Position numbers and translations under genes: made by a program
Notes under the pieces: generated by a model
Seen by the model: only the letters and a program-made list of their open reading frames with translations
Database searches by the model: none
What the model was told of the DNA's origin: nothing
In this document: positions 57,501-59,630 of the stretch, piece after piece
How positions within the stretch are numbered: the stretch's first letter is position 1
Layout of the letters: the number at the start of each line of letters is the position of its first letter
Source of the DNA: Alphaproteobacteria bacterium
GTDB taxonomy: Bacteria; Pseudomonadota; Alphaproteobacteria; CAAHEQ01; UBA3637
DNA: 64,000 nucleotides
Assembly (NCBI GenBank): GCA_045614025.1
Contig: JAZLCE010000017.1
Coordinates: 3,875 to 67,874 of the forward strand
Reading direction: 5' to 3'

Positions 57501-59630
57501 ATGAATAGATGTTTGTACCATAGCAACTTTTCTACTTTTTTGCATATGCCTGATGGGGAGGTATTAGGCATACTTTGTGAAGCTTACCATGGTGTGACTC
57601 TTACCACTACAATTGAAGCTTGGAAATCAGAAATATCTATAATAAAGAATATTCTTAAAAATATTGATGATGAAAATGGACAGATTATTTTTGAATATGA
57701 TATTCCTCGTCTTGGTAAACGTATCGATGTTGTATTATTAACAAAAGGGATTGTATTTTGTTTAGAATTCAAGGTTGGTGAATCTGAAATATTAGAAGTT
57801 AATATAGATCAAGTATTAGATTATGCTCTTGATTTAAAAAATTTTCATAAATATAGTAAAGATAAATTGATAGTTCCAATATTGATTGCAACTAATTACC
57901 AATACTCATCGTCAGAAATAAAAATGTCAGTATATGACGACCGTGTCGCAAATCCTCTTGTTACTGGTGAACATAATTTATTACAATTGATTAATGATGT
58001 TATTCAAAAATATCCAGATGAATCAACTGTTGACCTCAATTGGGTTATTAGTCCATATGCCCCAACACCTACGATAATTGAAGCAGCAAGAACTCTTTAT
58101 GAAAACCATTCTGTTGGAAATATTACACGTCACGAAGCTGATAAAGTCACTACTGATCAAACCATTTCATATATTATGAGTGTTATTGAAAAAAGTAAAT
58201 TAAATCAGGAAAAGAGTATATGTTTCGTTACAGGGGTTCCTGGTGCAGGGAAGACATTAGTCGGATTAGATGTTGCAATTAAACAAACTTATCATAATGG
58301 AGACAAACCTAATAAAGAGGATGGTGCTGTTTATTTGTCAGGAAATGGACCATTAGTTGCAGTATTGACTGAAGCATTGGCACAAGACAATTTTATGAAA
58401 TGTCGTTCAAGAGGAGAAAAAAAGAAACTATCAGATTCTCGTAGAGAAGTTTCTAAATCAATCCAAATGATACATCGATATAGAGATAATATGCTGGCTA
58501 AGATTGTTAATCCAGTCCAAAACGGTAAATTGGAAATTGATCCACGAAAGGCTGTTGAAAATGAAGAATCTGGGTTTGGCGAAGTTGAGCATATTGCCAT
58601 TTTTGATGAGGCTCAACGTTCTTGGACACATAAAAGACTCGCCGATTATCTTAAAAGAGGTGGAACGTATGGAAATAAACTGAAAGTTCCAAATTTTCCA
58701 ATGTCTGAGGCTTCTTTTCTTATCTGGTCACTTGATCAAAGAAAAGATTGGGCAACAATAGTGTGTCTTGTTGGGGGTGGTCAAGAAATAAATACGGGAG
58801 AAGCCGGTATTTCAGAATGGATCAAGGCTCTCAAAGAAAATTTTCCTTTATGGAAGATATATATATCTCCTAAATTGACTGATGATGAATATGCCGAAGG
58901 AAAAGTAAATGAACTTTTAAAAGATAATTTAAATGTTAAATACGAGGAAAAACTACATTTGGGAGTGTCTTTAAGATCTTTTAGAGCGGAAAAACTATCT
59001 GCATTCGTTCATGCATTGTTGTCTTTTAATAGCAATGCTTCAGTTCTTTTTGACGACATAAAATCTAGATATCCGATAGTTATTACTCGTGATATGGAAA
59101 AAGCCAAAAGATGGGTACATGAAAAAGCAAGAGGAAATGAACGTACAGGTGTTTTGGTCTCTAAAGAGGCAGCTAGATTTAAACCACTTGGAATTCATAT
59201 TTTGCCCTCAGGAGATGAAAATGCTGTTCATTGGTTCTTGGAGGATAAAGTTGACACCAGATCTTCAAATTATTTAGAAGATGCAGCTACAGAAATTCAG
59301 GTTCAAGGATTAGAATTGGACTATTCATGCGTTTTATGGGATGCAGATATGCGATACGAAAATGGTAAATGGCATTTTTATCGTTTTAATGGTAAAACCA
59401 AATGGAATGAACAGACTGGAAAAACAGAAAACAATAGAGAACTTCAAAAGTATATGTTAAATGCATATCGAGTATTGCTTACCCGAGCTAGATTAGGAAT
59501 GGTAATCTGTGTCCCTCAAGGCAATTTGAATAAAACTGCTAGTGGGTTTTGGGAAGATAGTACCCGCTTACCAGAGTTTTATGATAATACGTTTAATTAT
59601 TTAAAAGGGCTAGGTATCCCAGAAATATGA
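57501..59630 (+). CDS. DUF2075-like protein: PD-(D/E)xK-like N-domain + P-loop/SF1-helicase-like core
   Basis: GKRIDVVLL...VFCLEFKVG (D...ExK), Walker A GVPGAGKT, Walker B IAIFDEAQR, and C-terminal YRVLLTRARLGMVI (SF1 motif VI-like). ATG at 57501 after AAGGA. Confidence 0.7.
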   Translation: MNRCLYHSNFSTFLHMPDGEVLGILCEAYHGVTLTTTIEAWKSEISIIKNILKNIDDENGQIIFEYDIPRLGKRIDVVLLTKGIVFCLEFKVGESEILEVNIDQVLDYALDLKNFHKYSKDKLIVPILIATNYQYSSSEIKMSVYDDRVANPLVTGEHNLLQLINDVIQKYPDESTVDLNWVISPYAPTPTIIEAARTLYENHSVGNITRHEADKVTTDQTISYIMSVIEKSKLNQEKSICFVTGVPGAGKTLVGLDVAIKQTYHNGDKPNKEDGAVYLSGNGPLVAVLTEALAQDNFMKCRSRGEKKKLSDSRREVSKSIQMIHRYRDNMLAKIVNPVQNGKLEIDPRKAVENEESGFGEVEHIAIFDEAQRSWTHKRLADYLKRGGTYGNKLKVPNFPMSEASFLIWSLDQRKDWATIVCLVGGGQEINTGEAGISEWIKALKENFPLWKIYISPKLTDDEYAEGKVNELLKDNLNVKYEEKLHLGVSLRSFRAEKLSAFVHALLSFNSNASVLFDDIKSRYPIVITRDMEKAKRWVHEKARGNERTGVLVSKEAARFKPLGIHILPSGDENAVHWFLEDKVDTRSSNYLEDAATEIQVQGLELDYSCVLWDADMRYENGKWHFYRFNGKTKWNEQTGKTENNRELQKYMLNAYRVLLTRARLGMVICVPQGNLNKTASGFWEDSTRLPEFYDNTFNYLKGLGIPEI

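Follow-up and report, generated by a model that had tools for sequence, protein, structure and literature searches.

In a 64,000-nucleotide (nt) stretch of DNA from an uncultured alphaproteobacterium (GenBank assembly GCA_045614025.1, contig JAZLCE010000017.1, positions 3,875 to 67,874 of the forward strand; hereafter, the window), we have identified a gene for a nuclease-helicase, which is probably a single-protein defence enzyme of the Nhi-like family (candidate PDC-S41 in PADLOC) acting against phages or mobile DNA. This reading is carried by the match of the protein to the full length of the PDC-S41 profile, by its homology to a verified anti-phage protein of Bacillus cereus, and by the retention of all catalytic residues. 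The gene is present in one copy in the source assembly (1.57 Mb, 97% complete), where it constitutes an accessory, horizontally acquired cassette beside a gene for tRNA-Leu(CAA).

A nuclease and a helicase in one polypeptide

The gene lies in a single open frame on the forward strand at 57495–59630, which amounts to 711 amino acid residues when counted from TTG at 57495 in the list of open reading frames (ORFs). ATG at 57501 is the likelier start, because the sequence AGGA (57490–57493) is situated 7 nt ahead of this codon and also because the homologues start with M(N/S)RCLY in the alignment of their N-terminal sequences. A preliminary description of this DNA, which was made from the sequence without database searches, had placed the ORF at 57501–59630; we found this frame to be intact and prefer its ATG to TTG. 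All of the motifs quoted in that description were also found in the translation, which holds GKRIDVVLL...CLEFKVG, FVTGVPGAGKT, IAIFDEAQRSW, and NAYRVLLTRARLGMVICV as well as the motif YRVLLTRARLGMVI quoted for the C-terminal part. The gene and the parts of its product are arranged as follows.

57501–59630, + strand: Nhi-like/PDC-S41 nuclease-helicase gene, an intact ORF of 709 residues from ATG, with TTG also present in the frame at 57495
57501–58139, + strand: predicted N-terminal PD-(D/E)xK nuclease domain, residues 1–213 (AlphaFold2 and Foldseek; E65, D76, E89-x-K91, and Q104)
58212–59516, + strand: DUF2075/SLFN-g3 helicase-ATPase domain of the superfamily 1 (SF1) type (Pfam PF09848, E = 8.4e-67; conserved motifs)
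58233–58256, + strand: Walker A motif GVPGAGKT in the helicase domain
58602–58619, + strand: Walker B motif FDEAQR in the helicase domain
59466–59492, + strand: motif-VI-like YRVLLTRAR in the helicase domain

The profile of Pfam PF09848 (SLFN-g3_helicase, formerly DUF2075) matched residues 240–674 with E = 8.4e-67 over its positions 1–353 of 354, and the profile PDLC05014, by which PADLOC represents the single-gene phage defence candidate PDC-S41, matched residues 3–711 of the 711-residue frame over its positions 1–653 of 657 (E = 2.7e-242, 803.8 bits). The latter is the outcome of the PADLOC search that had been suggested in the preliminary description. In terms of the label given there, namely a “DUF2075-like nuclease,” the DUF2075 match is strong, but DUF2075 corresponds to the ATPase/helicase part of the protein and not to the nuclease. 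No family in NCBIfam matched the protein, and the nuclease domain (residues 1 to ~200) had no Pfam model, with only a faint match to NERD (E = 0.089); also, no Schlafen core domain was found in the Pfam search of the protein. A search of the PDB sequences with the single protein gave no match. When the profile of the family was used against PDB, only the helicase domains of SLFN11 and SLFN5 were hit, and these weakly (E = 0.0015–0.007) and around the P-loop, while the profile of the N-terminal domain gave chance matches only.

The whole protein was modelled by AlphaFold2 with the alignment of homologues as an input (pLDDT 90.4, pTM 0.88), and the model was matched by Foldseek to RecD, Upf1, and coronavirus nsp13 (i.e., SF1B) in PDB with E-values of 8e-6 to 3e-4. 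In the separate model of the N-terminal 213 residues (pLDDT 89.3), the secondary structures are in the order of alpha-beta-beta-beta-alpha-beta, which is the restriction-endonuclease core, and D76 is located in strand 2, E89-x-K91 in strand 3, and Q104 in the next helix. All of the Foldseek matches of this domain were PD-(D/E)xK proteins: McrC (E = 8e-4), Cdn1, Can2, Card1, VC1899, and restriction enzymes, and further Cas4-like ACE1 and Holliday-junction resolvases (Hjc). The N-terminal part is hence predicted to fold as a PD-(D/E)xK nuclease with conserved catalytic residues. The preliminary description had read the protein as a nuclease with an SF1-like ATPase and had proposed a structural comparison; the Pfam match, the conserved catalytic residues, and the folds indicated by AlphaFold2 and Foldseek (PD-(D/E)xK in the N-terminal domain and an SF1B core) agree with this reading, so that both a strong match to DUF2075 and a nuclease fold are in hand.

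A search of 1.84 billion representative proteins gave 4271 relatives at E ≤0.001, including 793 below 1e-30, and the same length and layout were seen in most of the best matches. We then examined conservation in a set of 61 diverse full-length homologues (33–65% identical to the query), in which the following residues were invariant: W41, E65, E89, K91, Q104, and Y108; G245, P247, G248, and K251 of Walker A plus T252; D369-E370-x-Q372-R373; and R657, R662, and R664. D76 is conserved in at least 90% of these full-length homologues and is invariant in a second alignment composed of 38 N-terminal domains, across which E65, E89-x-K91, and Q104 are likewise invariant.

Relation to experimentally tested defence proteins

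SG141 “Nhi-like” from B. cereus FSL H8-0482 is given as “Verified” in the tables of Millman et al. (bioRxiv 10.1101/2022.05.11.491447), the supplement of which provides 399 residues of the verified protein. This fragment is 89% identical to a protein of a B. cereus megaplasmid, which fits PDC-S41 over its full length (E = 1.4e-114) and is aligned with residues 42–711 of the window protein at 27% identity (E = 7e-57). Direct comparison of the verified fragment with the window protein also gave 27% identity (E = 3e-35), with both the nuclease block and the Walker motifs included in the alignment. The two proteins are the same in the two-domain layout, where the N-terminal PD-(D/E)xK domain with the common block FEYxI..R.D..LL...ExK is followed by the DUF2075 ATPase; furthermore, both have GxPGAGKT, FDEAQR(A/S)W, and GxGQEI, both are encoded as single-gene units, and both fit one PADLOC profile. 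They differ in length, the window protein being ~100 residues longer (709 vs 611 residues) mostly with insertions between Walker A and Walker B, and also in their settings: the window protein belongs to a separate, tightly conserved gut/rumen clade and is found in a gut alphaproteobacterium with a small genome, where its gene is in an integrase-less cassette beside a tRNA gene, whereas the B. cereus protein is encoded on a megaplasmid. The preliminary description had suggested an anti-phage role, which is supported at the level of sequence by the PDC-S41 match and the full-length homology to the verified Nhi-like protein; given this homology, its remark that the function of the DUF2075 family is poorly defined is out of date.

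In Staphylococcus epidermidis, Nhi requires both of its nuclease and helicase activities and limits the accumulation of phage DNA (Bari et al., bioRxiv 10.1101/776245). Nhi (SERP2475; Bari et al. 2022) is composed, as is the window protein, of an N-terminal PD-(D/E)xK nuclease and a DUF2075 helicase of the SF1B type in one chain, but there is no useful sequence similarity between the two past the P-loop. Indeed, the PADLOC model for Nhi hit the P-loop only (residues 231–263, E = 0.0021) and thus did not match as a family profile. Also, true Nhi-family genes, i.e., those hit by the same model with E = 3.6e-115, were found as separate neighbours of PDC-S41 genes at some of the other loci. Given the similarity confined to the P-loop and the occurrence of Nhi as a separate neighbouring gene, the window protein is considered to be an analogue or a very distant relative of Nhi and not a member of its family; the comparisons place it distantly within the Nhi-like family, its likeness to Nhi being one of architecture only.

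Two other groups of proteins resemble the window protein in part. Antiviral roles are attributed to both Schlafen group III proteins and Nhi-type enzymes, and the C-terminal helicase of the mammalian group III proteins (SLFN5, SLFN11, and SLFN13) is in PF09848 as is that of the window protein. Nonetheless, the window protein is outside group III, since its N-terminal domain is predicted to have the restriction-endonuclease fold of PD-(D/E)xK instead of the Schlafen core RNase, and the sequence similarity is seen only around the P-loop. McrC of McrBC, Can2, Card1, and Cdn1, to which the structure of the N-terminal domain was matched best, are PD-(D/E)xK nucleases in defence that are driven by a separate NTPase/sensor module. 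Their likeness to the window protein is only at the level of the fold (11–15% identity, TM-score of 0.3–0.4), and McrBC and the CARF nucleases employ a GTPase or CARF domain as the motor or sensor, instead of an SF1 helicase fused within the chain as in the window protein.

In the mechanism that we propose, the ATP-driven DUF2075 motor of the SF1B type would load on invading or replicating phage DNA, translocate along or unwind it, and feed it to the fused N-terminal PD-(D/E)xK nuclease. The nuclease would then degrade the DNA, by which accumulation of phage DNA would be stopped. One polypeptide would hence serve as both a sensor and an effector, with neither a methylase nor a partner gene needed in this genome. 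The defence activity in this proposal is suggested by the homology to the verified protein at 27% identity, and the order of the events and the putative target, namely replication intermediates of phages, are modelled on staphylococcal Nhi.

The cassette array at tRNA-Leu(CAA) and the origin of the gene

The nuclease-helicase gene is located in the first cassette of an array that starts at the 3' end of tRNA-Leu(CAA). The elements of the array are listed below, where relatives in the genus of the window genome are denoted by G numbers.

57134–57220, + strand: tRNA-Leu(CAA), the anchor of a hotspot with variable cargo (ARAGORN; Rfam tRNA, 54.4 bits)
57215–57356, + strand: junction repeat copy A, with GTACCA (3' end of the tRNA), a terminator hairpin at 57227–57251, and an X element of ~100 nt
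57357–57500, + strand: leader/upstream region of the cassette, with AGGA at 57490–57493; shares ~95% identity with the DNA ahead of the gene in G009
59631–59755, + strand: tail of the cassette, closed by a diverged pseudo-tRNA 3' end (GGCTCGATATTCGCTAAGTATGCTGTACCA)
59756–59898, + strand: junction repeat copy B, with GTACCA, a hairpin at 59768–59790, and an X element; 78% identical to copy A
60020–61435, + strand: cargo of cassette 2, a 471-residue membrane protein with DUF2628 (E = 3.5e-5), which is not part of the defence gene
61458–61493, + strand: junction repeat copy C, the end of the array, with GTACCA and the hairpin only

An SDR gene adjoins tRNA-Leu in the majority of the 21 genus genomes, and the identity of the tRNA as tRNA-Leu(CAA) was confirmed in all eight relatives from which the locus was retrieved. 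Each cassette junction comprises a pseudo-tRNA 3' end, a terminator hairpin with arms co-varying between the copies, and X with the inverted pair GTTCGATAA...TTATCGAAC, and the duplicated part of the junction is ~110–140 nt. The X element of copy A ends in the conserved core TTTATCGAAC (57317–57326), immediately past which the sequences diverge and the cargo-specific sequence begins. In copy B, which resembles the tRNA-Leu flank of G020, the arms of the hairpin differ from those in copy A with their pairing preserved, and this hairpin (59768–59790) serves as the predicted terminator of the nuclease-helicase gene. The downstream junction copies are preceded by a conserved but diverged mimic of the tRNA 3' end, GGCTCG(G/A)TATTCGCTAAG..GCTGTACCA, and the cassette tail is conserved at the ends of cassettes in G009 and G003 and also at copy C. 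Irrespective of the cargo, other species of the genus also have X behind their tRNA-Leu, and within the window genome X is found at this locus only; a dispersed repeat resembling a miniature inverted-repeat transposable element was rejected because X was found at no other locus in the genome. In the Rfam search of 56900–61700, only the tRNA was hit, and the junction repeats match no known RNA family. An ORF of 85 residues at 59637–59894 was rejected as a gene, as it extends across both the terminator and the repeat and matches no family.

An empty site was found in G013 and G007, where a DnaB_C-like gene comes immediately after tRNA-Leu, the hairpin, and X, and the same DnaB_C-like DNA is found in G003 after the nuclease-helicase cassette and its junction copy. 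With direct repeats containing the tRNA 3' end and an empty site in relatives, the locus has the hallmarks of a tRNA-adjacent island. In G009, the nuclease-helicase cassette is present in an array with three junction copies, where it is preceded by a NUDIX cassette and followed by an MFS gene. The array was thus seen at 57215–61493 of the window, at 1761–6691 of contig 4 in G009, and at 1395–1560 in G003, and the other cargos of the hotspot include a DUF4379 zinc-finger protein and a WYL protein. The description of the gene as the sole cargo of a tRNA-linked cassette is borne out by the empty site and by the presence of the same cassette in differing arrays of two other species of the genus, and this cassette is devoid of an integrase. 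Indeed, no recombinase was found between tRNA-Leu and metG, which means that the island has no integrase of its own; the tyrosine recombinases in the genome are XerD- and XerC-like only, and three small serine recombinases (~200 residues) are encoded on other contigs. Linkage to tRNA was rejected as a trait of the family, as a tRNA gene was found within 1.5 kb at only one of 80 loci elsewhere, and is specific to this genus.

Cassette 2 carries a membrane protein that had no match in PADLOC. Copies of this protein were found in G008 (66% identical) and in G005 and G012 (37–38% identical); G003, the closest relative, lacks it and has a different continuation of the array. Also, we noticed that contig 34 of G009 encodes at 6484–8067 a large serine recombinase of 527 residues (Resolvase, Recombinase, and Zn_ribbon_recom), the end of which lies within tRNA-Leu(CAA), 12 nt in from the 3' end of the tRNA, and behind which are an MT-A70 methyltransferase-like gene and others. 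In G009, the very site used by the cassettes in other species seems to be occupied by an integrated element.

It is conceivable, if rather doubtful at present, that the flank of tRNA-Leu(CAA) in this genus is an integrase-less platform for gene capture, which would be somewhat integron-like: single-gene cassettes (the nuclease-helicase, NUDIX, the membrane protein, and others) would be stacked head to tail and passed from species to species by a recombinase provided in trans, and the Nhi-like gene would be one interchangeable immune cartridge. Candidates for such a recombinase would be XerC/D or the large serine recombinase at the G009 site.

In terms of distribution, the nuclease-helicase gene is accessory, being found in three of the 21 genomes of the genus, namely the window genome, G003 (99% identical), and G009 (96% identical), and in one of 16 genomes that represent other genera in the family, as a 52%-identical copy, which also fits PDC-S41. 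The gene is therefore not a conserved core gene in related genomes, which the preliminary description had named as a finding that would count against its proposal. The next-best matches in the protein database are 77–80% identical and come from gut assemblies, among which the few named ones are Clostridiales or Oscillospiraceae. When one genome per species was searched, copies with 68–79% identity were found in metagenome-assembled genomes (MAGs) labelled as Clostridia, Bacilli, Erysipelotrichaceae, and Lachnospiraceae and also in those of Bacteroidales, Kiritimatiellia, Spirochaetales, and one Methanobrevibacter, i.e., in at least five bacterial phyla and one methanogen. In the maximum-likelihood tree, the two alphaproteobacterial copies are placed inside a clade of 25 rows (SH-aLRT of 100), 19 of which are Bacillota, and the source of the gene is most likely a gut Firmicute.

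The transfer from Firmicutes was not very recent, because the nucleotide identity to the Firmicute copies is 66–74% and the homology ends at the ends of the ORF; for the same reason, recent transfer of a larger block was rejected. The G+C content of the gene (33.8%) is practically equal to that of the genome (33.2%). Within the genus, the gene in the window genome (G000) is 96.4% identical in nucleotides to that in G009, while the SDR-tRNA flank of the same pair of species is 67% identical, and the cassette appears from this comparison to have been moved or replaced recently. The ratio of nonsynonymous to synonymous substitution rates (dN/dS) between these two copies is 0.17, and hence the protein is maintained by selection.

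Some individual copies deserve mention. The gene in G003 is split over three contig ends (contigs 69, 34, and 53) with two downstream contexts, either a DnaB_C-like gene and then metG or an MFS gene and then an Asn/Asp-tRNA synthetase gene, which points to the presence of a second cassette copy or to a MAG combining two strains; also, the G003 copy beside tRNA-Leu is without ~100 nt of the X element. The copy in the Methanobrevibacter sp. MAG from goat ileum (JAFRFD010000059.1, 10001–12121; 74% identical) is on a 21-kb contig and adjoins a second DUF2075-type gene (621 residues), and it represents either transfer from a bacterium to an archaeon or an error in binning. Among 50,697 phage records, the sole match was a 43%-identical full-length relative at 10060–12012 of MT836127.1, an unannotated “Bacteriophage sp.” of 12.7 kb from human faeces.

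Neighbourhoods in other genomes and rival explanations

We surveyed 140 immediate neighbours of the related genes at 80 loci in other genomes. Twelve of the 140 are MutT-like NUDIX proteins of ~130 residues matching PDC-S07 of PADLOC, and their genes are mostly placed 0–32 nt downstream in the same orientation. At about one-third of the gut-clade loci, a NUDIX gene comes directly after the nuclease-helicase gene, in many cases with the stop and start codons overlapping, and an XRE gene is upstream at some gut-clade loci. In some Clostridial copies, the NUDIX protein is cut to 76 residues (10127–10357 at two of the loci); NUDIX may be an optional partner. Other neighbours match Nhi proper, SoFic, PsyrT, GajB-like UvrD helicases, and PDC-S04, and the neighbourhoods elsewhere are therefore the usual setting of defence genes. 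Furthermore, a 77%-identical Clostridial copy was found on many contigs and, in the four places examined, is behind a regulator of the XRE type with 70 residues. This copy is in a block of ~10 kb containing an LmuB-like gene, HTH_17, HTH_36, and a tyrosine integrase, which is inserted at different places of the chromosome. The LmuB-like gene (12114–13850, 578 residues, SMC type of Lamassu, E = 1.8e-24) is located between two unknown genes, and the Clostridial element may carry a second defence system.

Several points weigh against the reading of the window gene as a defence gene. The closest relative that has been experimentally tested is, as judged from the alignments, only 27% identical, and with the PADLOC match to Nhi limited to the P-loop, the mechanistic analogy to Nhi rests on architecture and not on close homology. 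PDC-S41 is among the 145 candidates described as untested by Payne et al. (bioRxiv 10.1101/2024.01.29.577857), who drew them from genes located inside BREX, DISARM, or type I restriction-modification (RM) loci, and our literature search for “PDC-S41” returned no papers. The matches to sigma-70-like promoters upstream of the gene are weak, and no confident promoter was found in scans that are uninformative in such AT-rich DNA. Also, XRE and NUDIX are missing here, and the lone gene might be an incomplete module. A degraded form of the three-gene module was considered and rejected, as the window cassette contains no remnants of XRE or NUDIX.

Alternatively, the defence might be exerted through abortive infection, in which the nuclease-helicase, once it senses an infection, would attack the host DNA together with the phage DNA or arrest the growth, and would not destroy replication intermediates of the phage selectively. 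This would be consistent with a weak PADLOC match to lactococcal AbiO (E = 1.2e-4, residues 39–264, over the N-terminal domain and the P-loop), with the frequent position of the gut-clade gene behind an XRE-type repressor, where toxic effectors are commonly found, and with the possible cleavage of host DNA by Nhi as discussed in Bari et al. (bioRxiv 10.1101/776245). However, the match to AbiO is a marginal one, and the window gene has no repressor, antitoxin, or partner; moreover, three species have kept the gene intact under purifying selection, which speaks against a strong intrinsic toxicity, and we regard abortive infection as unlikely. It is quite improbable that the protein is a non-immune enzyme with which mobile elements process their DNA in replication, recombination, or repair and which has been left here as a remnant. 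The closest Clostridial relatives are indeed inside the integrase-bearing element of ~10 kb with HTH_17 and HTH_36, RecD, Dna2, and AddAB among the structural neighbours are enzymes of repair and recombination, and the locus is an integration hotspot; nonetheless, the gene travels as a single-gene cassette without the backbone of an element, it is flanked elsewhere by a wide variety of genes, which are frequently those of defence systems, PDC-S41 originates from a set of genes lying within BREX, DISARM, or type I RM loci, and the homology to the protein verified as anti-phage extends over the full length.

A further explanation, to which we assign hardly any weight, is that a recently acquired gene is decaying in this 1.57 Mb genome and is now a silent or non-functional relic. 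While no convincing promoter in the scan, the absence of the XRE and NUDIX companions of many relatives, and the lack of a recombinase near the cassette (with only XerC/XerD-like tyrosine recombinases in the genome) would fit such a relic, the frame of 709 residues is intact and aligned end to end with the family profile, all of the catalytic residues are retained, the dN/dS value against the G009 copy is 0.17, and the upstream leader is ~95% conserved between the species. A single-protein defence enzyme of the Nhi-like family is therefore our preferred reading of the window gene.

The finding adds little to protein biology, as the architecture of Nhi and Nhi-like proteins is already accepted as a single-gene anti-phage system and PDC-S41 is already flagged in PADLOC; it does tie this candidate family to an experimentally verified relative. 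The conservation of the gut/rumen clade across phyla is mildly notable, as is the integrase-less array of cassettes, and the former makes the gene a good candidate for a broadly active and portable tool of defence in the gut. For an uncultured alphaproteobacterium with a genome of 1.6 Mb, a bare gene dropped into a tRNA-linked hotspot would represent a route to immunity, and this hotspot is the more original object than the defence gene itself.

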